Of a DNA stretch of 64,000 nucleotides, positions 3,839 to 51,372 are shown one piece after another. Source of the DNA: a virus; UHGV virus genome UHGV-0371537. One strand, 5' to 3'. The first letter of the stretch is position 1, and every line of letters begins with the position of its first letter. Below the pieces are notes generated by a model. That model made no database searches, was not told the DNA's origin, and saw only the letters and a list, made by a program, of their open reading frames with translations. The translations under genes were made by a program, and so were the position numbers.

Positions 3839-5161
3839 ATGGCTAAGAAACTTGTAACCGAAGAAATGCGCAAAGAGTGGCTGCCTGTTCTTCAAAAAGA
3901 ATCTGAACAGATCCAGCCTCTGTCTGCCGAAAACGTCGCTGTCCGTCTCCTGGAAAACCAGGCTGAGTGGAACGCCAAAAACCTGGGTGAATCCGAAGCC
4001 CCTGGCTCTCTGAACAACACTGTCGGTAAATGGCAGCCAGTTCTGATTGACATGGCTAAACGTCTGGCTCCGATCAACATCGCGATGGACTTCTTCGGCG
4101 TTCAGCCGCTGTCTGGTCCTGACGGTCAGATCTTCGCACTGCGTGCTCGCCAGGGCGTTGCAGATAGTTCCAACACCGCGCAGTCTCGTAAAGAACTGTT
4201 CATGCAGGAAGCTGATTCCGGCTACTCTGGTGACGGTACTGTACAGGCTGGCGACCCATCTGGCTTTACCCAGGCTGAAATCGAAGGTTCCGGCGCTGGT
4301 ACAACCACCATCGGTAAAGGTATGCCAAGCACCGACGCTGAACTGCTGGGTACTACCACCAACCCATGGGCGCGTGTTGGTATCACCGTGCAGAAAGCTA
4401 CCGTGACTGCGAAGTCTCGCGGCCTGTACGCTGACTACAGCCATGAGCTGCGCCAGGACATGATGGCGATTCACGGCGAAGACGTGGACAGCATCCTGTC
4501 TGACGTGATGGTCACTGAAATTCAGGCGGAAATGAACCGTGAGTTTATCCGCACCATGAACTTCAGCGCAGTACGCTTCAAAAAATTCGGCGCAAACGGC
4601 ATCGTGGACATCTCCACCGATATCTCCGGTCGTTGGGCTCTGGAAAAATGGAAGTACATGACTTTCATGCTGGAAGTTGAAGCGAACGGTATCGCCGTTG
4701 ACACCCGTCGTGGTAAAGGGAACCGTGTTCTGTGTTCTCCGAACGTAGCATCTGCCCTGGCGATGTCCGGCATGCTGGATTACGCTCCGGCGCTGCAGGA
4801 AAACACCAAGCTGGCGATCGACCCAACTGGCCAGACCTTCGCTGGTGTTCTGTCTAACGGCATGCGCGTTTACATCGACCCGTATGCAGTAGCAGAGTAC
4901 ATCACCCTGGCATACAAAGGCGCGACCGCGCTGGATGCTGGTATCTTCTTCGCGCCGTATGTGCCGCTGGAAATGTACCGCACCCAGGGTGAAACCACCT
5001 TCAGCCCACGTATGGCGTTCAAGACCCGCTACGGGATTTGTGCTAACCCATTCGTTCAGATCCCAGCGAACCAGGATCCACAGGTCTATGTGACTGCGGA
5101 TGGTATCGCCCAGGACAGCAACCCTTACTTCCGTAAAGGGTTAATAAAAGGCCTGTTTTAA
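3839..5161 (+). CDS. gp23: major capsid protein (T4 gp23-like)
   Basis: Aligns to recalled T4 gp23 (FFGVQPLSGPDGQIFALRA, FAGVLSNGMRVYIDPYA, GIFFAPYVPL, FKTRYGI); start moved to ATG 3839 (AAGGA 9 nt upstream). Confidence 0.9.
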   Translation: MAKKLVTEEMRKEWLPVLQKESEQIQPLSAENVAVRLLENQAEWNAKNLGESEAPGSLNNTVGKWQPVLIDMAKRLAPINIAMDFFGVQPLSGPDGQIFALRARQGVADSSNTAQSRKELFMQEADSGYSGDGTVQAGDPSGFTQAEIEGSGAGTTTIGKGMPSTDAELLGTTTNPWARVGITVQKATVTAKSRGLYADYSHELRQDMMAIHGEDVDSILSDVMVTEIQAEMNREFIRTMNFSAVRFKKFGANGIVDISTDISGRWALEKWKYMTFMLEVEANGIAVDTRRGKGNRVLCSPNVASALAMSGMLDYAPALQENTKLAIDPTGQTFAGVLSNGMRVYIDPYAVAEYITLAYKGATALDAGIFFAPYVPLEMYRTQGETTFSPRMAFKTRYGICANPFVQIPANQDPQVYVTADGIAQDSNPYFRKGLIKGLF

Positions 5162-27383: not shown

Positions 27384-27554
27384 ATGTCCAAACCATTCAA
27401 AAATGCGGGTGTCGACAACCTCGACCGCCGCTTTAGCCCATCGGAAACGCTGATGAGTCAGATTGAACTCAATCGCGATTTCCTGGAACATATGCTGGTC
27501 AAGCCGGAAGGTGAGGCCGAAGACAACCCTGAAGAAGGCAATAACGATGATTGA
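27384..27554 (+). CDS. small acidic protein overlapping the vWA gene start
   Basis: 56-aa ORF MSKPFKNAGV...EEGNNDD; GAGG RBS; stop overlaps vWA start (ATGATTGA); not in ORF track. Confidence 0.35.
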   Translation: MSKPFKNAGVDNLDRRFSPSETLMSQIELNRDFLEHMLVKPEGEAEDNPEEGNNDD

Positions 27555-29808
27555 ATCCCTGGAGTTTAAGAATGCGGTTTCGACTGTTGCTCCGTCCAAC
27601 CATGTAATCGTTGTGGACATCTCTTATTCGATGTACCGTGCGCTCCCTGAAGTCCGTAAGCACCTGAAGGAGAACCTGCCTTCCCTGGTGAAACCGGAAG
27701 ACACTGTGAGCCTCCTATACTTCTCATCCCGTGGCGACTTTGGTACTGTGTTCTCTGGTCGCCAGATCAGTGTTGCGTCTGATCTGAGCGAGCTGAACAA
27801 ACTGATTGATCGCTTCCTGCAACCATCCGGCTGTACTGGTTTTGTTGAACCTCTGGGTCTGGCGGTAGATACTGCGCGCAGTCTGAAGAAACCCGGCTAT
27901 GTCAACAACCTGGCATTCATGACCGATGGTTATGACAACTGCTGGCGCTCCAATGAGATCCTGGCCGTTGCCGAAACCTTGCCATTCGTCTTTGATAACA
28001 TCACTTTCATCGAATACGGCTGGTACTGTAACCGCGAACTGCTGGCTCAGATGTCTGAGCGTTCCGGCGCGACTCACGTGTTCGCCGAAGGCCAGACTGA
28101 ATATCAGACTGAGCTGGAAAACGTGTTGAAGTCCTCGGTGCCGAAGGTTCGTGTTGACGTTCCTCTGGTGTACACTCACGCCATTTATGTCGAAAACGGC
28201 GTAGCAACCGTGCTGGCGGTGCAAGCCGAAGCAAGAATGGATTTCCAGATTGGCGATGAGTCCGTAAAACGGAAAGTGATTGAAGTAGGCCACGTGAGCA
28301 TCCCTGAGAGCGTCACGAAGCTGTGGGTTGTCAATCCTAACATGATCGACCAGCTTGATGCGCTGGCGGACATCCAGGCGGCATACGTGCTGGCGTTCTA
28401 CGGCGTACACATCATGGACGCAGACCTGGTGTGGGCTGCACTGAAGAAAACGGGCGACGTTCGCTTCATCAAACAGTACAGCAACTGCTTCACCAAGCAG
28501 GACTACTCCAACATCAAAGTTGATCTGACCCAGGCCATCGTTGATGACCAGCTGCGCGGCGTTGATGGTATCGATTACAATATGGTCCCGGCTGAAGATG
28601 CCACGACCGTGGTTGATGTGCTGACGTACCTGGCCGAAGCTGGCGTGTCTGTTGCCACCAAGCACCCGATGTTCTCCTACAAGAGTATCGGTCGCGGTAC
28701 TGTACAGAAAGCCGACGACACCGAAGACAAACTGGCCGAAGAAATCGCGAACGCCCAGTCCAAAGAAGAGCGCAAAGCCCTGGCTCTCAAGCTGGCCGAG
28801 CACGAAGAGTGGACGCCGTCGTTTGAACCTGCCAATGATCTGGGTGTGGTTCCAATCAGCGACCTGGTCTATAACTCCGAGCGCCCGAACATCAGTGTGC
28901 GGACAGTGCAGCATGGTACTGTTGCAGTTCCTGAGTTCGCGCAGAAGAAGTACGGCCTGCCTGAAGAACTTGACACCTTCCAGTGGCGCAATTACACCAT
29001 CGTCAAAGATGGTATCATCAACGTGAAGACTCTACCGTTTAGACATACCGAATCACCAGTCCGGGGTGCTGAGGTTGTGCAAAAGCTGATCGAGATGGGC
29101 GTTCACGTGTTTGGTGGTCCAGAAGTGTTCATCTTGAACCTGGAAAGCGTACCGCTGGTCAACCGTGCGATGGTCAAGAACATCAGTGCTGCTCAGTTCT
29201 TTGCGGACAATGTCCGCCTGGAAGCCCTGAAAGGCAAGCAGAAGGTGCTGAAGTTCTATCGCGACGCTCTGGTTGGTAAAGGCAATGCCAAAGGTCTGGC
29301 TATTCAGTACGGCGCTGAGGCCGCAGAATACCTGTCTGGTGTTGGCATTCGCGATTACGGCTTCTCGCCGAAGACTGAGACCAAGGAGTCTACCGACTTC
29401 TACATGAGCCGTGAGCTGAACGTTAAGATCGCTGGCGCTTCTTCCCTGCCGAGCATCGCAGCGGTACAGAAGAAGATTGCCGACAAAAAGACTCTCAATG
29501 CGGGTGATATGTTCATCGCCAATGCCCTGAAAGAGTACGATGCATTCGTGAAGTCCCCGGCGATCACTGCCGTGCCTGAAGCCGTACAGAAACAGCTGAT
29601 CGAAAACTGGATCGACGCTGCTGCCAAGGCGGCCATCACTGAAGTCCGCGCTCTGAACAAGACGCTGTCTAAAGTGGTTTATGGTATCGTTGCTGGCCAC
29701 GGCTGGTTCACCGACCTCGACCTGGAAGAGTCCACCATGGAAGTTGAAGTGGATGGCGTGAAGTACAAGGTCACTGCCGAACTGGCAGAGAAAGAGATCA
29801 AAATCTAA
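27547..29808 (+). CDS. von Willebrand factor A (vWA) domain protein, 753 aa
   Basis: MIDAS-like HVIVVDISYSMY (DxSxS) with downstream T and MTDGYDN; start moved to ATG 27547 (GAAGAAGG RBS); rest unassigned. Confidence 0.65.
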   Translation: MIESLEFKNAVSTVAPSNHVIVVDISYSMYRALPEVRKHLKENLPSLVKPEDTVSLLYFSSRGDFGTVFSGRQISVASDLSELNKLIDRFLQPSGCTGFVEPLGLAVDTARSLKKPGYVNNLAFMTDGYDNCWRSNEILAVAETLPFVFDNITFIEYGWYCNRELLAQMSERSGATHVFAEGQTEYQTELENVLKSSVPKVRVDVPLVYTHAIYVENGVATVLAVQAEARMDFQIGDESVKRKVIEVGHVSIPESVTKLWVVNPNMIDQLDALADIQAAYVLAFYGVHIMDADLVWAALKKTGDVRFIKQYSNCFTKQDYSNIKVDLTQAIVDDQLRGVDGIDYNMVPAEDATTVVDVLTYLAEAGVSVATKHPMFSYKSIGRGTVQKADDTEDKLAEEIANAQSKEERKALALKLAEHEEWTPSFEPANDLGVVPISDLVYNSERPNISVRTVQHGTVAVPEFAQKKYGLPEELDTFQWRNYTIVKDGIINVKTLPFRHTESPVRGAEVVQKLIEMGVHVFGGPEVFILNLESVPLVNRAMVKNISAAQFFADNVRLEALKGKQKVLKFYRDALVGKGNAKGLAIQYGAEAAEYLSGVGIRDYGFSPKTETKESTDFYMSRELNVKIAGASSLPSIAAVQKKIADKKTLNAGDMFIANALKEYDAFVKSPAITAVPEAVQKQLIENWIDAAAKAAITEVRALNKTLSKVVYGIVAGHGWFTDLDLEESTMEVEVDGVKYKVTAELAEKEIKI

Positions 29809-29815
29809 TCCAACA

Positions 29816-29839
29816 GGCGGGGCAACCCCGCCTTTCTTT
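29816..29839 (+). terminator. rho-independent terminator after vWA gene
   Basis: GGCGGGG-CAA-CCCCGCC then TTTCTTT. Confidence 0.7.
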
Positions 29840-29851
29840 GGGAGAAGTAAC

Positions 29852-30175
29852 ATGAGCGGTAAACCAACATATGTTGAGGTAATGCGCCACCTGGCCCGGT
29901 ACGCCACCGATAATCTGAATATGGATCTGTGGCGTGACGATGACAAGCGCAAACTGCTGGATGATGTGGCGGCTCAAAACGAGGATGCCCTGGACAAGCT
30001 GGCTGGCCTCCGCACCAAGAAAGACCTCGGCGGCGACGAACTCGATGCCATAGAAATCGTAATGGATCTCGAAGAAGAGTTTCAGGTCGAAATCGACGAC
30101 GGTTGGCTGGGTAGTAAAGGCGATGACCCGACCATGGGTGAACTCGCTGAACTCGTGGTCGCCCTGCGCAAATAA
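29852..30175 (+). CDS. acyl carrier protein-like protein with acceptor Ser replaced by Glu
   Basis: DLGGDELDAIEIVMDLEEEFQVEI vs E. coli AcpP [24 protein letters not shown]; the phosphopantetheine-accepting S of DSL is E here. Confidence 0.7.
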   Translation: MSGKPTYVEVMRHLARYATDNLNMDLWRDDDKRKLLDDVAAQNEDALDKLAGLRTKKDLGGDELDAIEIVMDLEEEFQVEIDDGWLGSKGDDPTMGELAELVVALRK

Positions 30176-30181
30176 CAGAAG

Positions 30182-30207
30182 TCCCCAACAAACGTTGGGG
30201 ATTTTTA
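30182..30207 (+). terminator. rho-independent terminator after ACP-like gene
   Basis: TCCCCAAC-AAAC-GTTGGGGA then TTTTT. Confidence 0.7.
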
Positions 30208-30217
30208 CTTTTAGGGG

Positions 30218-30246
30218 TTTACTTCCTCTAAGGAATGTCCTATTAT
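30218..30246 (+). promoter_or_regulatory. early-type sigma70-like promoter (TTTACT-N17-TATTAT)
   Basis: -35 TTTACT 30218-30223, -10 TATTAT 30241-30246; directly after terminator 30182-30207. Confidence 0.5.
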
Positions 30247-30297
30247 TCAATAACTGGCGAACGATGGGTTCATCAGGTTGAAAGGTAAGATTATATC

Positions 30298-30537
30298 ATG
30301 AAGAACAAAATGGTCGAAACTTCAGTAGAGATTGATCGCAATTGGGGCTTGCTGCGCGCAAAGGGGTTCCGTCGTGTGTATGCGACCAAAGAAGTCTACG
30401 CACAGCGCCGTGACGTTATTATCAGTAAGAAGGGTAAAGAGTGGGTTGCTGAAGAAGTCGATGTTGAGACTGGCGTCGTCGGCAAGATAAAGGCCAAATC
30501 TGCAATTCTCTTCGCTCTTCTGAAGCATATCAGTTAA
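30298..30537 (+). CDS. hypothetical small basic protein
   Basis: 79 aa behind TTTACT-N17-TATTAT promoter and GATTATATC-ATG context. Confidence 0.45.
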   Translation: MKNKMVETSVEIDRNWGLLRAKGFRRVYATKEVYAQRRDVIISKKGKEWVAEEVDVETGVVGKIKAKSAILFALLKHIS

Positions 30538-30597
30538 TTCTATAAACCCACGGCGGGGTATGTTTACTCCGCCTATTTGACATCAAGAGACTATATC

Positions 30598-30975
30598 ATG
30601 AAAAAGTTAATCCTCGCTGTTGCTATGCTGGGCGCTTCCTTTGCTGCTGTTTCCGCTCCTACTGTCATCACCGGAGTGTCTACCAACGGCGTTTATGCTT
30701 TCAAGGCGTATGGACAAGACCTCGTCCTGTATAAGAACGGGAAGATGATTGAGCGCTGTGTAGCGGACGGTGTAAACCGTGGGATCGACAATCAGGGCAG
30801 TCCGTTCATTCTGGACTTCTATGCCTGCTCCAACGGGACGAAGACCTTTGGTGTCAAGACCTTCGGCAACGTCGCCGACGGCGGTTGGGGGTTTATGGTT
30901 GAAACCCGCAATCGCCGCCCGGTCACGACTATTGAAGAAGAGTTCTTGATCTCTGTCGGGGGTGGTTCGTTATGA
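30598..30975 (+). CDS. secreted (periplasmic) protein with Sec signal peptide
   Basis: MKKLILAVAMLGASFAAVSA signal peptide; GAGACTATATC-ATG initiation context. Confidence 0.55.
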   Translation: MKKLILAVAMLGASFAAVSAPTVITGVSTNGVYAFKAYGQDLVLYKNGKMIERCVADGVNRGIDNQGSPFILDFYACSNGTKTFGVKTFGNVADGGWGFMVETRNRRPVTTIEEEFLISVGGGSL

Positions 30976-31259
30976 AAAAGGACGAAGAACTCGCTCTATT
31001 CTCTATGGTGCGCAGTGAAGTCGAAACAGGTTTCAGGGAGACAGACGCGATTATTGACTTAATGAAAGTCAAAAACGATATCGACAATGAACGGTACAAA
31101 ACAGCGCTCTACGGCCTTCTCGAGTTCATTCTGCGCAAGGCCGATCTTGGTCCTGTCGACACCCTTGATGATCTGACCAAGCTGTTGAACACGGGCGGGG
31201 AAACTTTCGACACCGCTCGTATCCTGATTGACGGTGGACCTGAAGAAGACGAGGTGTGA
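30972..31259 (+). CDS. hypothetical acidic protein
   Basis: 95 aa, ATGA overlap with upstream gene. Confidence 0.45.
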   Translation: MKKDEELALFSMVRSEVETGFRETDAIIDLMKVKNDIDNERYKTALYGLLEFILRKADLGPVDTLDDLTKLLNTGGETFDTARILIDGGPEEDEV

Positions 31260-31260
31260 T

Positions 31261-31347
31261 ATGGACTGGGGAATTATTCTTCAATGTGTTGCTACTTTCG
31301 TCTTGGTGTTCCTGATTGTGTTCTGTTTTGGTTTCAGGATGCGCTAA
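31261..31347 (+). CDS. very small hydrophobic peptide
   Basis: 28 aa MDWGIILQCVATFVLVFLIVFCFGFRMR, single TM-like segment; start 1 nt after upstream stop; speculative. Confidence 0.3.
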   Translation: MDWGIILQCVATFVLVFLIVFCFGFRMR

Positions 31348-31380
31348 CTAAGGGATAATCCATATCCCGAGGTGAATCTC

Positions 31381-31830
31381 ATGTTCATGTCTTCCTTCAT
31401 AGACTGGTTGAACATTATCAACGGCCTGAGGATTCCTGTTGGAAATCTCGGGCTTTCTCGTTCTTCTATGCCACAGATTGACGATGACAAGCAGCAGGCG
31501 TTCCATGACTACCTGGAGGAACTCGGCATCACTATCGATGCTGGCCAGGTTCCTATCAAATCGCTCCGTCTCACCCAGAACGAAATCAACAAGATGAAGG
31601 TCTGGAAGATCATGAAGAACATTCGAAACAAGAAGCCGATGGGTCGGGTTTGGGTGTCTTCTGACAATTATGTGGTCGACGGCTCCCACCGCTATGTTGC
31701 TGCCCTGAACATGGATGATCGCCAGCGCATCAAGGTCTACAAAGTGGACATGCCAGCGATGGAGTTCGTCAAGGTTGCCAAGCAGTTCAAGGGTGTGAAG
31801 TTCAGAACTGTATCTGATGCCCGATACTAA
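31381..31830 (+). CDS. ParB/sulfiredoxin-like N-terminal domain protein (ParB-like nuclease domain)
   Basis: YVVDGSHRYVAA resembles the ParB-family DGxHR motif; GAGGTG RBS before ATG 31381. Confidence 0.5.
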   Translation: MFMSSFIDWLNIINGLRIPVGNLGLSRSSMPQIDDDKQQAFHDYLEELGITIDAGQVPIKSLRLTQNEINKMKVWKIMKNIRNKKPMGRVWVSSDNYVVDGSHRYVAALNMDDRQRIKVYKVDMPAMEFVKVAKQFKGVKFRTVSDARY

Positions 31831-31914
31831 TCTGAATACGATAGTTTATTGAAACCCTTTACTCAACATGGTGAGCCGCCTATCATTTCATCCAATGAAA
31901 TAAGGAGAATCACC

Positions 31915-32601
31915 ATGAAACGTTTAATCCTCGGGGTCGTGCTGGCTGGTCTGGCATTACCCGCCGCCGCCAAGCTGAACTCCACAGGTGACAAACTGTG
32001 GTCTGATCTTTCCTACTGTGCTGGGTTCTCCCAGGCAGTCGCCATCGACAAGTCTGGTTCCATAGAGAACTTTGCTGAACTCTGGAACACGGGCAACGTC
32101 TCCACTGCTGTGGTCAATGCTGGGATTGAGTTCAACCGTTACAAACAGGGAGCCTATAACCTCAAGGGCTACCTCAATGACGATGAATTTAATCGAGGCG
32201 GAATGGAGGCTGGCGATTTGATCATGACTGGCCGAATGGGCACCCAAGGCCGAATGACAGTCAGACAGTGCCGTTCGCTTCCTTCTCCGGCATTACAGAA
32301 GGGTGTGCAGATAGGCCGCCGTCACCTGAACCTCATCAACGATGGCAACCAGTGCATCAAAGTATTCGAATACAGCGCTACACAGACCTCTGATCGCGTC
32401 CTGAAGAAGGAATGGCGTACTCGCGCTCTTGGTCTCAGAGCCTGGCTGGTTGAGAACGATCATTATTTTGAGGATCGTGTTCAGAACGGTCTGAAAGACC
32501 TGGCCACGAATCTGAGCGTGAACCTTGATGATCCTCGCATGTCGCGCGAACTTCAGCAGACTCGTGTTGACTGCGACAATATGATGAAGGAGAACGAGTG
32601 A
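31915..32601 (+). CDS. secreted protein with Sec signal peptide
   Basis: MKRLILGVVLAGLALPAAA signal peptide; AAGGAG RBS. Confidence 0.55.
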   Translation: MKRLILGVVLAGLALPAAAKLNSTGDKLWSDLSYCAGFSQAVAIDKSGSIENFAELWNTGNVSTAVVNAGIEFNRYKQGAYNLKGYLNDDEFNRGGMEAGDLIMTGRMGTQGRMTVRQCRSLPSPALQKGVQIGRRHLNLINDGNQCIKVFEYSATQTSDRVLKKEWRTRALGLRAWLVENDHYFEDRVQNGLKDLATNLSVNLDDPRMSRELQQTRVDCDNMMKENE

Positions 32602-32915
32602 TGAAAGGTAAAATCCTACTCCTGCTGTTACTGATGACCGGGTGTGTAAACGCTACACCACCGTCTAAACTGAATACCTGCGCCGCCTGGATGGAGACGT
32701 ATCAGCAGTTCCACCCAGATGACAAAGATACATCTATCCTCCTGTCTGACTTCGAGGGGGAGCTGAAGCGCCTTGATCTGTTCAGTGTTGATCAGATAGA
32801 GAATGCGCTGGATCTTCCCATGATGCTGACTGCGGCTGATAACAGCCCACAGACGAAGAAAGATCTGATGTATTGCCGGGGGATTGCCCAAGACTTTGTT
32901 GGCGTTTCAAAATAG
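32598..32915 (+). CDS. predicted lipoprotein
   Basis: MMKGKILLLLLLMTGC with lipobox L-M-T-G-C; ATGA overlap with upstream secreted-protein gene. Confidence 0.55.
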   Translation: MMKGKILLLLLLMTGCVNATPPSKLNTCAAWMETYQQFHPDDKDTSILLSDFEGELKRLDLFSVDQIENALDLPMMLTAADNSPQTKKDLMYCRGIAQDFVGVSK

Positions 32916-32965
32916 ATTTCAGGGTAAAATTTAACCCTCCATTGAAATTGAAGGAATACATTGTG

Positions 32966-33913
32966 ATGCTCCTGACGAAAACAATCGCTGCGGCGATCAT
33001 CGAAAAGAATAAATCATTCGCTCCAAACTCAGCGCGGGTGATGCTCGTACATGATGACGCCCGTGTCATCTTCGCCGAGAAGTTCGAGCAAGGCTCTACA
33101 TTCTGGTTCGCTGACACCATGCGTGAAAGCAAACTGCAGGGCATCATCCACAAACTGACTTTGGTTGCCAAGCGCAATGATCAGGGCGACTGGGTGGGTG
33201 TTTCCGACTTCAGTACGAAGATCACACCAAAGGCTCCGCTTTCTCGTCAAGAGCGCATTCTGGAAGCCCAGGAAAAGCTGCGTGCGGCTCGGAGCACACC
33301 GAAGGCGAAACCAGATGCAAGTCCGGTCATAACTCCTGCCACCAAACTGCCTCCCGTGAGCGAAAAGTCTGTTGAGCAATATGCGGAGAAGCGCAAGGGT
33401 GTGGTTGTGGAATCACAACGTCTGGTGAAAACAGAGAATGGTCACGCAGTTGTCAAGACCGAAAAGACTGTAGAACCCTTTAAGGATTCTTCAAAATCAG
33501 CTGTTGAAGTCGTGTCCGCAGTAACTGAAGTTGTCAGTAAAGTTCGCGAAGACATGATCGCCTTGGGTGCCTTGAGCGAACCCTCTGAATTCATTTCCCT
33601 GCGCGAACTTGAACCGCCTGCCCGCCGCCGGGTTGCCAATGAGATGTTTGTATCATTCAGGCCGGATGGAAAGATCATTCTGTGTAAAGCCCTGCGCGAT
33701 GCACTCCCTTGGACAACTCTGAACATGATGGTGACCCGCGACTTCAAACGTTTCGGTGTCTGTGCTGGAAAGGACTACAACGTCAACCAGAGCGGGACTT
33801 ATGTCAACCGCGCCATGTGCTCCAAGCTGACCTTCCCAGAAGATTCCGGAACTATCCGTGTCGTCGTAGAGTGGGATGACAAGCTGAACATGTATGTTGG
33901 CGATTTCCAATAA
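32966..33913 (+). CDS. hypothetical protein
   Basis: 315 aa from ATG 32966 (AAGGAA RBS); Lys/Pro-rich central linker; no motif assigned. Confidence 0.5.
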   Translation: MLLTKTIAAAIIEKNKSFAPNSARVMLVHDDARVIFAEKFEQGSTFWFADTMRESKLQGIIHKLTLVAKRNDQGDWVGVSDFSTKITPKAPLSRQERILEAQEKLRAARSTPKAKPDASPVITPATKLPPVSEKSVEQYAEKRKGVVVESQRLVKTENGHAVVKTEKTVEPFKDSSKSAVEVVSAVTEVVSKVREDMIALGALSEPSEFISLRELEPPARRRVANEMFVSFRPDGKIILCKALRDALPWTTLNMMVTRDFKRFGVCAGKDYNVNQSGTYVNRAMCSKLTFPEDSGTIRVVVEWDDKLNMYVGDFQ

Positions 33914-33969
33914 TCAATAACCTCGGGCGGCTTATCATAAAGTCGCCCTTTCATTTGAGAGACTATATC

Positions 33970-40578: not shown

Positions 40579-42915
40579 ATGACCCAAAGTACAGATATCC
40601 TGGCCAAATTTGGCAATCTTCTGAAGGAAGCTGACACCCCGGTAGAGGTGGAAGTCCCATTCGAAGTGCGTGATAACATTACGCACAAACTGACCTTCCG
40701 CAAAGGCCGCGCCAAGAACTTCCGCTCCATCGGCAATCAGTTCATGGAGATTGATTACCAGCGCAACCCGGCTACCCTCGTCACGTCCGATGACAACGGC
40801 GCGGGTAAATCCACGATGCTGGTGTGGCTGTTGTTCTTCGTATTGTACAACGACACGTACAGCAAGAAGGAGAAGAAGGCAGGTCTGGTGAACTCACAGA
40901 GCCGCAAGGAATGTGTGGGCGAGGTGGAGTTTGCCTGTCGCGGCAGCGAATGGAAGGTTCGCCGTGGCATTAAACCTGACTTTGTTGAAGTCTACCAGAT
41001 GGCGGACGGCAAATGGATGCAGATCGATAATGAAGCAGCCAAGGCCGACATGAACAAGTACATCGTGAACCTCATCGGCGTGGACCAGAAGATGTTTGAG
41101 AACTCTCTGGTTCTGGGTAAAGAGAAGTTCATTCCGTTTACGGAGATGTACACTGCCGACCGCCGCGCCATGGTGGAGACGATTTGGGACTTGGGCTTCT
41201 TCAGCCTGATGAACGAAGATGTCAAGGCCGCCATCAAGAAAGCAAACGAAAAGCTGGACACAATCGCAAATGAATGTGCTTTGAAGGTTGTTGACCACAC
41301 CAACAAGAAGACGCAGCTGCAGCAGATAGAGCAGTCCAATGCCCTTATCCAACAGCAGTCGGCTGATATTCTTGTGCAGCAACAGGAAGCACTGACTTCC
41401 CTGGACGCTGACATCGCCACCCAGAATGAAGAGCGCACCCGCCTCACAGCTGTGGAGTTTGAAGCCACCCAGGAAATGAAGACGGTGGAAAGCCGCCTGC
41501 ATGATGAATCCATGGTTGAGATCGAGGCTGTGAAGAAAGACTTTGAAGCCAAGATCCAAACCGTGAAGAATGCTGCTCAGGACAAGGCTGACGATTATGA
41601 ACGCATCGAAGTGTCTACCGCCGAGCATGATCTTCAGGTCTTGCGTGACCGCGCCTTTACAGTGGCCGAAAGCAAGAACACTCTACTCACCGAGCGCAAT
41701 GCAAACCTGGATGCCCTGAACGCTGCTATCCAACGCCGCCAGCAGGGTGAGAACTTCCGCATCAAGTTCCAGACCGAAATGGACGGACATCAGTCGGCCA
41801 TCAAGCGCTTCCACGACATGGGGACTTGCCCTACCTGTACCCAACTGGTCTCCGATGACACCAAGGCGCGGATTGAGAGTGAGTACAATCCTCAGATCCA
41901 GGAACTGCAGTCGAAGTTAGATCAACTGGACAAAGTTACCGCCGATATCAATGTCCTGATCGATGACCACAAGGCTCAGGACGATAAGTTGGTTGCCGAT
42001 ATTGCTGTGTTGGACGCTGAACTGGATGCAATGCGCAAGCAGGCCGACGAAATCGTTGACAACATCAAACAGCTGCGCCGTGACATTCAGGGGTTCCATG
42101 ACGCCGCCACGATCGAGTGTAACTCTCTGAACCGTGAATGTCAGCAGAAGATCCTTGACATCCGTAAGGCGTTGAACGTTCGTTTTGAAGACATCACTGC
42201 ATCGCTGCAACAGACGCGGGAGAACGCCGTTAGCGGGATTAAAGCCGTCGATGATAAGATCGCCGAGCTGAAAGCCCGTCGTGCTCCTCTCGTGGCGTCG
42301 ATTGCCGATCTGGAGCGTAAACTGTCTATACAGCCGACACCCACAGCCGACCTGGAGAATGCCATCTCCTCGATTGAGGGTGAACTGGAAGATCTATACC
42401 AGCGCCGCGAGGATGCTGACCAGGAACTTCAAGACTTACAGCACCTGTTGTTCTTCCTGAAGGATGACCAGACCAAGGCGCGCATCATCGCCCTGTACCT
42501 GCCATTCCTCAATAGCAAGATCAACGAGTATCTTGAAGCCCTTAACATGTTCCTGGACATCGTTGTTGACGATACCTTTGAGATCACCATGAGTGCAGCA
42601 GGTCGCAAGGGGCAGAGCATCTTTTCCTTGTCTACTGGCCAACGCAGTCGTCTGAACCTGGCTGTGACATTAGCCCTGCGTGATGTGGCTAACCTCAAGG
42701 CATCAGTGCAGTGCAACCTGTTCGTGCTGGATGAAATCCTTGAGAACATGAGCGAGCGCGGGGTGCAGGAATCGGTTGAGATGCTGAAGCATAAGTTCGG
42801 CGGGAACAACCTGTTTGTCATCAGTCAGCGTGAGCAGGAGTTCCAGGAATACTTCCAACACAACATCCGTTATGGCCTGCGAAACGGCCTGACCGAAGTT
42901 ATCAAGAAGGATTGA
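40579..42915 (+). CDS. gp46: recombination ATPase subunit (T4 gp46 / SbcC-Rad50-like)
   Basis: Walker A SDDNGAGKST, long central coiled coil, C-terminal LSTGQRSRL (signature) and FVLDEIL (Walker B). Confidence 0.8.
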   Translation: MTQSTDILAKFGNLLKEADTPVEVEVPFEVRDNITHKLTFRKGRAKNFRSIGNQFMEIDYQRNPATLVTSDDNGAGKSTMLVWLLFFVLYNDTYSKKEKKAGLVNSQSRKECVGEVEFACRGSEWKVRRGIKPDFVEVYQMADGKWMQIDNEAAKADMNKYIVNLIGVDQKMFENSLVLGKEKFIPFTEMYTADRRAMVETIWDLGFFSLMNEDVKAAIKKANEKLDTIANECALKVVDHTNKKTQLQQIEQSNALIQQQSADILVQQQEALTSLDADIATQNEERTRLTAVEFEATQEMKTVESRLHDESMVEIEAVKKDFEAKIQTVKNAAQDKADDYERIEVSTAEHDLQVLRDRAFTVAESKNTLLTERNANLDALNAAIQRRQQGENFRIKFQTEMDGHQSAIKRFHDMGTCPTCTQLVSDDTKARIESEYNPQIQELQSKLDQLDKVTADINVLIDDHKAQDDKLVADIAVLDAELDAMRKQADEIVDNIKQLRRDIQGFHDAATIECNSLNRECQQKILDIRKALNVRFEDITASLQQTRENAVSGIKAVDDKIAELKARRAPLVASIADLERKLSIQPTPTADLENAISSIEGELEDLYQRREDADQELQDLQHLLFFLKDDQTKARIIALYLPFLNSKINEYLEALNMFLDIVVDDTFEITMSAAGRKGQSIFSLSTGQRSRLNLAVTLALRDVANLKASVQCNLFVLDEILENMSERGVQESVEMLKHKFGGNNLFVISQREQEFQEYFQHNIRYGLRNGLTEVIKKD

Positions 42916-42917
42916 TT

Positions 42918-43082
42918 ATGAACTACGAACAAATTAAACTGGCTATTCTGATCTTTGCATGCATCATTGACATCATTGCATTTTCTCGTGAAACCGAAAG
43001 GAAAAACTACCTGAAAGCACTGGGGTATCTCGGGTTCTCTGCCTGGTTCTGTTATCTACTTGCAGGTCAAATCCTGAAATGA
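42918..43082 (+). CDS. small hydrophobic membrane protein
   Basis: 54 aa MNYEQIKLAILIFACIIDIIAF..., AAGAAGG RBS; overlaps next gene by ATGA; not in ORF track. Confidence 0.35.
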   Translation: MNYEQIKLAILIFACIIDIIAFSRETERKNYLKALGYLGFSAWFCYLLAGQILK

Positions 43083-43772: not shown

Positions 43773-44387
43773 ATGACGATGACAACGTTGAAGGCCATGG
43801 CCTTGTCCGTGACCTTTACCATTGCCAGCGGGAATGTGCACGCTTCCCAAAATACAAGTCAATGTGTTTATGATTTCTCTGAGCAACAACTTAATACGCT
43901 GGCAACTGCCTATCACATAGGCAAGACACAAGATCTTGGTTACACTCTGGCCGCCATATCTTGGCGAGAGAGCCGCGCTGGTGAAGATGTAGTGTCAATG
44001 CGCTATGGACTCAAGGCGGCCAACATGGGAGCCTTTCAGAACAAGGTGAAGACAGTTGGTGATCGCGAAGGTTGTAAGAATCGCAAGTGCTATGCCAATG
44101 TCGCCATAAAGTTGCTGACCGACCAAGAATATGCCGCGCAAGCCGCCCTCGAAGAGATGCAGTTCTGGCTGACCTATCACAAGCAGAATGTACGCAAATC
44201 CCTCTCCTCTTACAATGCTGGCTTCGCCCGTAATCCCGCATCGAACGCTTATGCCGCTGACGTCGTGAAGAAAGCTAAATATCTTCAGAAATGTGTGTCC
44301 TTCAAAGGCCGGACCATCTCCGAGGTAGATCCTCAGGTGATCGCCATGAACAAGCGCACGATAGAGAAACTGAAGAGGACAAGATAA
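43773..44387 (+). CDS. secreted protein, possible lytic transglycosylase (SLT-like)
   Basis: Signal peptide MTMTTLKAMALSVTFTIASGNVHA; AISWRESRAG...MGAFQ resembles the SLT catalytic E-S...G.MQ region; AAGGA RBS. Confidence 0.45.
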   Translation: MTMTTLKAMALSVTFTIASGNVHASQNTSQCVYDFSEQQLNTLATAYHIGKTQDLGYTLAAISWRESRAGEDVVSMRYGLKAANMGAFQNKVKTVGDREGCKNRKCYANVAIKLLTDQEYAAQAALEEMQFWLTYHKQNVRKSLSSYNAGFARNPASNAYAADVVKKAKYLQKCVSFKGRTISEVDPQVIAMNKRTIEKLKRTR

Positions 44388-51249: not shown

Positions 51250-51343
51250 AACTTTTTACTTCACATCACCCTCCCTCCAGGCCTCGTCGAATGAGGCCTT
51301 TTAAAATACTTCAAAAATATTTTAAAAATTTATTGAAAAAGAC

Positions 51344-51372
51344 TTTACTCTTCAATAATGATGCACTATTAT
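51344..51372 (+). promoter_or_regulatory. early-type sigma70-like promoter (TTTACT-N17-TATTAT)
   Basis: -35 TTTACT 51344-51349, -10 TATTAT 51367-51372; in an AT-rich spacer ahead of gene 51446. Confidence 0.5.

Follow-up and report, generated by a model that had tools for sequence, protein, structure and literature searches.

An overlapping pair of predicted periplasmic proteins, annotated as spanins in its relatives, within a run of envelope-protein genes of an Agtrevirus-like phage

The window analysed here is a stretch of 64,000 nucleotides (nt) of the virus genome UHGV-0371537, which belongs to an Agtrevirus-like phage of the Ackermannviridae (Ag3/SKML-39-like) and shares 92-94% nt identity with Ag3, ChubbyThor and SKML-39. 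At positions 30598-32915 it carries a run of plus-strand genes, which a sequence-only reading had described as envelope-targeted small proteins, and all of these open reading frames (ORFs) were found where that reading had placed them. Envelope targeting was also supported for the four proteins it had named, two of which carry Sec signal peptides, one a lipobox and one, of 28 amino acids (aa), a single membrane pass. The main subject of this report is the last two genes of the run, LARGE (31915-32601) and SMALL (32601-32915), which, as far as their sequences tell, form a family-restricted, strongly constrained and overlapping pair of exported proteins. The run as a whole is not one system but three unrelated units placed side by side, namely this core pair, a second pair of accessory genes and a hypervariable slot of micro-ORFs. 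Its genes are evidently real, and the ratio of nonsynonymous to synonymous substitution (dN/dS) was 0.04-0.08 for mature LARGE and for the ParB-like gene upstream of it against Vi01, Taipeivirus and Limestonevirus, with synonymous sites saturated. For mature SMALL, dN/dS was 0.04 against PP35, while against Vi01 and Taipeivirus its synonymous sites were saturated and dN was 0.18-0.24.

LARGE encodes an exported protein of 228 aa (phrog_4260), which is called 'i-spanin' in relatives, and its start codon is preceded at 7 nt by AAGGAG. Its signal peptide (31915-31971) is predicted to be cleaved between MKRLILGVVLAGLALPAAA and K, is laid out as MKR, LILGVVLAGLAL and PAAA with K following, and leaves a mature part of 209 aa, which has four invariant Cys; the protein is neutral in charge. 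Signal-peptide calls were made by rules for the n-, h- and c-regions, by the -3/-1 rule and by conservation in homologues, and under these rules LARGE, as well as the secreted protein sec125 of the accessory pair, has the positive n-region, the h-region of 7-15 residues and the small -3/-1 residues of a signal peptidase I (SPase I) substrate. Signal peptides and Cys pairs are kept in the homologues. The h-region comprises 12 residues in the window copy, and in all 30 clusters retrieved with LARGE, which are at least 76% identical to it and Ackermannviridae-like, the N-terminus consists of MK(R) followed by an h-region of 11-13 residues. Across 20 aligned sequences, P16, A17 and A19 (P-A-x-A) before K20 are invariant while the h-region varies, suggesting that selection acts on the SPase I site and not on a membrane anchor. 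Distant full-length homologues (P0069 and P0070, 32-36% identity) likewise have signal peptides, which end in AWS before E and in ASA before A, respectively. A rough insertion-energy sum gave +4.5 for LARGE, whereas the sums of comparator i-spanins lay between -1.4 and +0.6 in five cases out of six. When a LARGE profile was searched against 1.84 billion representatives, only 11 matches were obtained; besides fragments, these comprised two full-length homologues, each on an Ackermannviridae-like contig, and a marginal repeat protein (E 7e-4), and none of the 11 provided a functional lead.

In the Miltonvirus Serratia phage Kevin (L007 2555-2935), LARGE is represented by its N-terminal half only (126 aa, including an AxA-type signal peptide) and SMALL is retained, implying that LARGE has two domains, of which the C-terminal one is dispensable. 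In ChubbyThor (L001 4909-6511), the ParB-like gene and LARGE are separated by an inserted gene for a NUMOD3 homing endonuclease, and the start of the 'putative i-spanin' is annotated 99 nt upstream of the conserved ATG, which has a ribosome-binding site. The longer start has no such site and would enclose a promoter-like element, and the added stretch abuts the NUMOD3 insert; annotated in this way, the signal peptide is turned into an apparently internal hydrophobic segment.

SMALL encodes an exported acidic protein (isoelectric point (pI) 4.4) of 104 aa, which belongs to phrog_3843, 'Rz-like spanin'. Its start overlaps the LARGE stop by one base (TGATG), and the overlap amounts to 1-4 nt in relatives. 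The N-terminus carries a lipobox, MKGKILLLLLLMTG followed by C, with LMTG before C15 (Cys codon 32643-32645) and Val at +2, as well as a second, SPase I-type site, VNA before T19. Substitutions compatible with a lipobox (MAG, IAG, IVG) are present in the close lineage, and the window copy is probably lipidated. Nevertheless, the lipobox Cys occurs in only 7 of 37 SMALL clusters (about 24% of member sequences), being absent from Vi01, LIMEstone/PP35, Taipeivirus, 0507-KN2-1, the Miltonvirus Kevin and the distant contigs L009 and L010, and in one close relative it is replaced by Ser. An AxA-type SPase I site, on the other hand, stands right before the conserved mature start in every member examined. 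As the anchor is missing in most relatives, the function of the family cannot depend on attachment to the outer membrane. The AlphaFold 2 (AF2) model of SMALL is a compact, all-alpha bundle of five helices with a predicted local distance difference test score (pLDDT) of 82.5 overall and above 90 in the mature part, and no known structural relative of the model was found. SMALL has two invariant Cys residues and LARGE has four, all at wide distances and outside any CxxC motif, a spacing which would fit periplasmic disulfides. The two proteins share a motif, L-x-x-C-A-[GA]-[FW], but a paralogy between them was rejected since hhalign gave a probability of only 10.7%.

The distribution of the genes was followed by tblastn of the window proteins against eight loci, which came from six phages of five genera and from two distant metagenomic contigs (L009, L010). 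The trio of ParB-like gene, LARGE and SMALL was found in all eight, in an order that holds even where identity falls to 28-36%. Between Agtrevirus, Kuttervirus, Limestonevirus and Taipeivirus, LARGE retains 85-100% identity. Among phage records, SMALL occurs in 278 and sec125 in 103. A search with the region 30000-33500 matched 276 phage records, nearly all from Ackermannviridae, with Shigella phages ChubbyThor and Ag3 and Salmonella phage SKML-39 on top (93-94% identity), and a 24-kb query of the window returned the same relatives. Scans with Pfam, NCBIfam and PADLOC gave no match for any envelope protein of the run, and sequence searches of the PDB gave none to any characterised protein.

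A sigma-70-like promoter candidate, TTTACT-17-TATCAT (31858..31886, plus strand), lies directly upstream of LARGE and is preceded by TTATTGAAA at 31846-31854. The window contains three elements of the form TTTACT-N16-18-TAnnAT, where 0.14 would be expected; each of them is intergenic and on the plus strand, and two of the three are preceded by TTATTGAAA. The region upstream of LARGE is nearly invariant across genera, and Taipeivirus keeps the -35 and -10 hexamers with a diverged spacer. The T4-type late motif TATAAATA was not found on the plus strand near the locus, which is weak evidence, because the motif is rare elsewhere in the window too and these phages may use another late consensus. 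Taken together with the position of the genes, these signals suggest that LARGE and SMALL would be expressed before the late phase. As further observations on this region, the composite motif TTATTGAAA-N3-5-TTTACT-N17-TATyAT occurs twice, in the 31846-31917 region and at 51330-51372; dS is 0.06-0.46 over the LARGE promoter region and signal-peptide codons versus 0.43-1.6 over the gene body; and an inverted repeat, ATTTCAT-cca-ATGAAAT (31885-31901), shares bases with the -10 hexamer and borders on the Shine-Dalgarno sequence.

The proteins annotated as i-spanin and o-spanin in Marshall, ChubbyThor and PP35 are 93-100% identical to LARGE and SMALL, the pair is listed in the spanin database, and RefSeq and PHROGs both name SMALL an 'Rz-like spanin'. 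Clear homology to lysis spanins was what the sequence-only reading had named as grounds for giving up its proposal, and in the annotation of relatives such a link formally exists, but the label itself fails when the membrane anchors are examined. If it were right, the pair would be a canonical two-component spanin, which spans the periplasm and fuses the membranes at lysis. Several features agree with this: the genes are adjacent and overlapping in the window and in all relatives, LARGE has one N-terminal hydrophobic segment, the window copy of SMALL has the lipobox expected of an o-spanin, and Cys residues are present in both periplasmic parts. The spanin genes of T4 are likewise unlinked to its other lysis genes, and the Vi01-like phages have no other spanin candidate. 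Lysis genes of T4-like phages are described as not clustered in the survey of Kongari et al. 2018 (PMC6139136).

However, i-spanins are integral type II proteins of the inner membrane, held there by an N-terminal transmembrane domain (TMD) that stays uncleaved, which LARGE does not show: the h-region of 11-13 residues, followed by P-A-x-A, stands against uncharged anchors of 17-26 residues in six accepted i-spanins from one part of the survey's table (PMC6139136). Nor is a lipoprotein anchor conserved across the candidate o-spanin family, the Cys being missing in 30 of 37 clusters, including those of the type phage Vi01 and of the PP35 gene annotated 'o-spanin'. The usual architecture, a coiled-coil or extended i-spanin with a short, proline-rich and largely unstructured o-spanin, was not found in the pair either, SMALL being modelled as a globular bundle. 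According to the survey's tables (PMC6139136), the Marshall i-spanin has zero coiled coils and 35% helix, and the Marshall o-spanin has 94 aa and 56% helix, against about 20-25% helix plus strand for most other separated o-spanins tabulated beside it. The survey treats the Marshall proteins as singleton families and, given their 300 periplasmic residues, as its longest two-component spanin, and the curators of the spanin database remarked on this entry 'Too long?... taking his word!' (PMC6139136). The survey also describes spanins as extremely diverse as a class, with more than 40% singleton families (PMC6139136), for which an identity of 85-100% across genera is atypical. Homology to an experimentally validated spanin was not detected in Pfam or NCBIfam, and the sole PHROG match was the pair's own family, named from annotation. 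No experimental work on the pair, including on outer-membrane disruption at lysis, was found in the literature, and the label appears to trace back to one unverified in silico annotation, that of phage Marshall. On this evidence the spanin label does not hold up, since the pair is predicted to be without the two defining membrane anchors across the family.

The 'spanin-less' list of the survey takes in most other Vi01-like phages and comprises Vi01, Maynard, SFP10, SJ2, SJ3, CBA120, ECML-4, PhaxI, phiSboM-AG3 and Dickeya RC-2014, all of which are Vi01-like (PMC6139136). Vi01, Maynard, SFP10, SJ2, PhaxI, Ag3 and RC-2014 were among the phages that matched the pair, or SMALL, in the present searches.

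The gene directly upstream of LARGE (31381-31830, plus strand) encodes a basic protein of 149 aa (pI 9.8, phrog_2859) with a weak ParB/Srx-like character and no export signal, and it is not an envelope protein. It is always found in this position and is syntenic in all loci. The sequence-only reading had placed a ParB-like domain protein among the envelope genes; the gene is indeed there, but the ParB assignment is weak, consisting of a match to phrog_1033 (E 1.7e-4 over 55 residues), with no Pfam match at E<=0.1 and no PDB sequence match. Its homologue in Dickeya phage JA15 (L008 3494-3943) is annotated 'unknown structural protein', and the protein aligns in the middle of a very long PHROG profile (phrog_2859 positions 314-467 of 740). 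Possibly it belongs to the virion or is injected.

The accessory pair opens the run. The gene sec125 (30598-30975, plus strand) encodes a secreted protein of 125 aa (phrog_5474; MKKLILAVAMLGASFAAVSA...), whose Sec signal peptide is laid out as MKK, LILAVAMLGASF and A, with A following. Cleavage was put between these two Ala residues because the alternative, after VSA, is disfavoured by Pro at +1, and the mature part is about 105 aa; C54, C77 and the signal peptide are kept down to 50% identity. The gene g95 (30972-31259, plus strand) encodes an acidic cytoplasmic protein of 95 aa (pI 4.3, phrog_4458), and its distribution is the same as that of sec125. As the g95 start overlaps the sec125 stop (ATGA), the two genes are probably translationally coupled. 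By tblastn, both are absent from Vi01, Kevin and distant contig L009, and distant contig L010 gave only a weak g95 match. The two genes would be dispensable as well as coupled in translation, and the secreted protein is presumably disulfide-bonded.

The third unit is represented by tm28 (31261-31347, plus strand), which encodes a single-pass membrane peptide of 28 aa, MDWGIILQCVATFVLVFLIVFCFGFRMR, and is preceded at 6 nt by a GAGGTG Shine-Dalgarno sequence. Its acidic N-end and basic C-end suggest an N-out/C-in topology. No tm28 homologue was detected by tblastn in the eight loci. The peptide occupies a hypervariable insert (window 31200-31400) between the invariant flanks ...GAAGAAGACGAGGT and CTAACTAAGGGATAATCC..., which holds an unannotated 26-aa single-TM (transmembrane) orthologue of tm28 in SKML-39 (L004 31622-31735), a 37-aa single-TM peptide in ChubbyThor (L001 ~4330-4450), where a different frame is annotated, a 52-aa single-TM peptide in Marshall, 62-aa and 32-aa single-TM peptides in Klebsiella phage 0507-KN2-1 (L006 1393-1673), and an unrelated 80-aa soluble ORF in the Limestoneviruses. 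The slot would be recombination-prone and recurrently house tiny N-out/C-in membrane peptides of unrelated sequence, and it illustrates how membrane micro-proteins of phages can turn over fast and go unannotated. Its layout recalls the modular exchange sites of T4-like genomes.

In the whole window, a rule-based scan of greedy, non-overlapping ORFs flagged signal-peptide-like N-termini in 4 plus-strand ORFs of 89, and three of the four fall inside the 2.3-kb run. The enrichment in envelope proteins is modest, and the clustering is only partly independent because two of the three flagged ORFs are one co-translated pair.

In SKML-39, the locus sits within a block of replication and nucleotide-metabolism genes, with clamp loader, RegA-like repressor, MazG, phosphoribosyl pyrophosphate synthetase, NAMPT, vWA protein and acyl carrier protein upstream of the cluster, and HU-like protein, helicase, RNase H and gp55-like late sigma factor downstream of it. 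Upstream of sec125, the window has a gene of 79 aa (30298-30537, plus strand), and upstream of this a second sigma-70-like promoter candidate, TTTACT-17-TATTAT (30218..30246, plus strand), which is a possible start of the transcription unit. Terminator-like hairpins flank the unit at 29815-29833 and at 33925-33948; the latter (plus strand) follows the next gene (32963-33913) and is the probable end of the unit. Further upstream, the window carries a phage-encoded acyl carrier protein (29852-30175; Pfam PP-binding, phrog_4154), which adjoins a gene for a protein of about 730 aa (27463-29808; ORF of 781 aa from an upstream TTG) annotated as vWA-domain in relatives, and the two are separated by the intrinsic-terminator-like hairpin at 29815-29833.

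The ORFs of about 42.9-52 kb were searched for an endolysin or holin, which yielded only two candidates, some 11 kb from the pair and not adjacent to it. One is a protein of 204 aa (43773-44387, plus strand) with a Pfam SLT lytic-transglycosylase match at the cut-off (E 2e-4), which belongs to phrog_600, 'unknown function'; its N-terminus resembles a Sec signal or a signal-anchor-release (SAR) segment (MTMTTLKAMALSVTFTIASGNVHA followed by SQ), and the mature protein has a pI of 9.6 and four Cys. The other, about 700 nt upstream of the SLT gene, is an ORF of 56 aa (42912-43082, plus strand, phrog_34593), which shows two hydrophobic stretches by eye and one in a Kyte-Doolittle scan. One possibility is that the first is a muralytic enzyme that is exported and the second its holin-like partner.

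The explanation we propose combines the three-unit composition of the run with a core pair that is soluble, periplasmic and not a spanin, and as a whole it is given about even chances. The run would lie in the early/replication region of an Agtrevirus-like genome. LARGE, after cleavage of its Sec signal peptide, would be a soluble periplasmic protein of 209 aa, and mature SMALL an acidic helical bundle of about 86-90 aa, which would be lipid-anchored only in the window lineage and a plain SPase I-cleaved soluble protein in most relatives. The two would assemble in the periplasm into a stoichiometric complex stabilised by disulfides, and a dedicated sigma-70-type promoter would drive their synthesis before the late phase.

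As for what such proteins do, the sequence-only reading, which is supported in part, had pointed to superinfection exclusion, receptor masking or lysis inhibition as possible roles. The role that we tentatively favour over the others, though it is itself somewhat unlikely, is that of a periplasmic binding or inhibitor module acting on a conserved muralytic or envelope component, for which the phage gp5-like tail lysozyme or the exported basic SLT-domain protein would be candidates. In this way the pair would shield the wall of the infected cell from superinfecting particles or from premature lysis. The suggestion is made because both proteins are predicted to be soluble, with an optional lipid anchor (as in MliC versus PliC) and an acidic SMALL, because a basic exported SLT protein is encoded in the window and the core genes of relatives include one for a gp5-like tail lysozyme, and because the very high conservation fits a conserved target.

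Several points weigh against the proposed explanation and this role. Nothing ties the pair to any lysozyme; the sequence-only reading had seen no likeness to T4 Sp (Spackle), and indeed no similarity to Spackle was detected in sequence or in fold, nor a Pfam or PDB match to a characterised protein. The 16-residue stretch L4-A19 of LARGE could conceivably stay as a weak anchor, and the AF2 model of LARGE, built from a low-diversity alignment of 20 sequences, has a pLDDT of 42, from which a fold cannot be inferred. Superinfection-exclusion genes are usually accessory and fast-evolving, while this pair is core and highly conserved. The expression timing rests on promoter-like motifs only; no transcriptome of an Ackermannviridae phage was found in the literature, where functional work on lysis or periplasmic genes of this family was not found either. 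Finally, no other spanin is recognised in these phages in the survey (PMC6139136), which leaves room for a role in lysis. A gene annotated 'superinfection exclusion' lies near the pair in Vi01, Taipeivirus and Miltonvirus, but it encodes a cytoplasmic Pfam GP17 protein, is absent from the window and was set aside as irrelevant.

A role in lysis could take the form of a non-canonical module, in which a soluble and sometimes lipid-tethered complex replaces the spanins and might attack the outer membrane or its tethers after wall degradation. This is quite unlikely in our view, although it would agree with the core status of the pair, with the fact that Vi01-like phages lyse enterobacteria and yet have no recognisable spanin, with the gain by SMALL of an outer-membrane-type lipobox (+2 Val) in one lineage, and with the further envelope genes beside the pair in Vi01 and a distant contig. 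On the other side, neither protein has the amphipathic or cationic features of membrane-active proteins, SMALL being acidic and LARGE neutral; the type of promoter and the place of the genes in the genome suggest that they are expressed before the late phase; it is not apparent what would restrain a soluble outer-membrane disruptor; and neither an endolysin gene nor a holin gene is linked to the pair. The further envelope genes, found in Vi01 (L005 5913-6258) and on distant contig L010 (6028-7028), encode a two-TM protein of 69 aa and a Band_7/SPFH lipoprotein of 263 aa (MKRFAMVLMLGLGSLLLTGC...), and neither has a homologue in the window.

The pair could instead mask or modify the host surface, in the manner of T5 Llp or lambdoid Cor or by interfering with O-antigen or capsule export, and so block adsorption of progeny or competitors to infected cells. 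Export of the proteins and the lipoprotein form taken by SMALL in the window lineage would agree with this, as would the accessory or variable nature of sec125 and the micro-TM slot, which is common among host-specific exclusion genes. LARGE and SMALL, however, are near-invariant across phages of Salmonella, Klebsiella, Dickeya and Shigella, which use different O-antigen or capsule receptors, and a host-specific receptor target is therefore unlikely for the core pair; nor is the lipid anchor kept across the family, and Pfam and PHROGs gave no similarity to Llp or Cor. We thus regard this role as very doubtful. The canonical two-component spanin, in view of the missing anchors described above, is highly improbable.

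The genes of the pair had already been catalogued; what is new is that their label is unsupported and that an unexplained core periplasmic pair with a novel fold exists in a phage family listed as spanin-less. In its broadest form, the pair would be a previously unrecognised, Ackermannviridae-specific two-protein periplasmic system, either an anchor-less replacement of spanins or a bipartite complex for wall protection or superinfection exclusion, with a novel fold unrelated to Spackle, Imm and Llp, which we consider unlikely. If it did replace spanins, this would explain how 'spanin-less' phages breach the outer membrane. The survey's own question, how Vi01-like phages disrupt the outer membrane, is sharpened in any case, and the pair provides a conserved and easily cloned candidate for it. 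Without a lytic role, the pair would amount to a core periplasmic complex of novel fold, expressed before the late phase in phages widely used in biocontrol and therapy, and its target would be worth knowing. Relabelling the genes would stop an unsupported spanin name from spreading, including into genome reports of therapy phages.

Compared with known systems, the pair resembles spanins (lambda Rz/Rz1, and the separated PseT.3/PseT.2 of T4) in its adjacent, overlapping and envelope-directed genes, in the downstream lipobox of the window copy and in the periplasmic Cys of both proteins. It differs from them in that LARGE has a cleavable signal peptide instead of a type II anchor, most SMALL relatives lack the lipobox, a coiled coil is missing, and SMALL is a globular helical bundle instead of an extended, proline-rich o-spanin; moreover, it is a singleton and the longest pair on record, its conservation is very high, and the promoter in front of it is of an early type. 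T5 Llp and lambdoid Cor are also small phage-encoded proteins, outer-membrane lipoproteins which act on the surface of the infected cell, but they are single, variable and host-receptor-specific genes, whereas here a conserved pair with a dispensable lipid anchor and without sequence similarity to them is found. MliC and PliC show that one family can exist as a lipoprotein or in a soluble periplasmic form, anchoring being optional for a binding or inhibitor function. They are of beta-barrel type, unlike the all-alpha SMALL, no homology was detected, and an inhibitor role for the pair would be an analogy only. A further analogy, of logic and not of ancestry, may be drawn with Spackle (gp61.3) of T4, the periplasmic inhibitor of the gp5 tail lysozyme, which is likewise a small exported helical protein with a cleavable signal peptide and a Cys pair; the phage studied here is a T4-related myovirus that also has a gp5-like tail lysozyme, and the pair lies in its early region.

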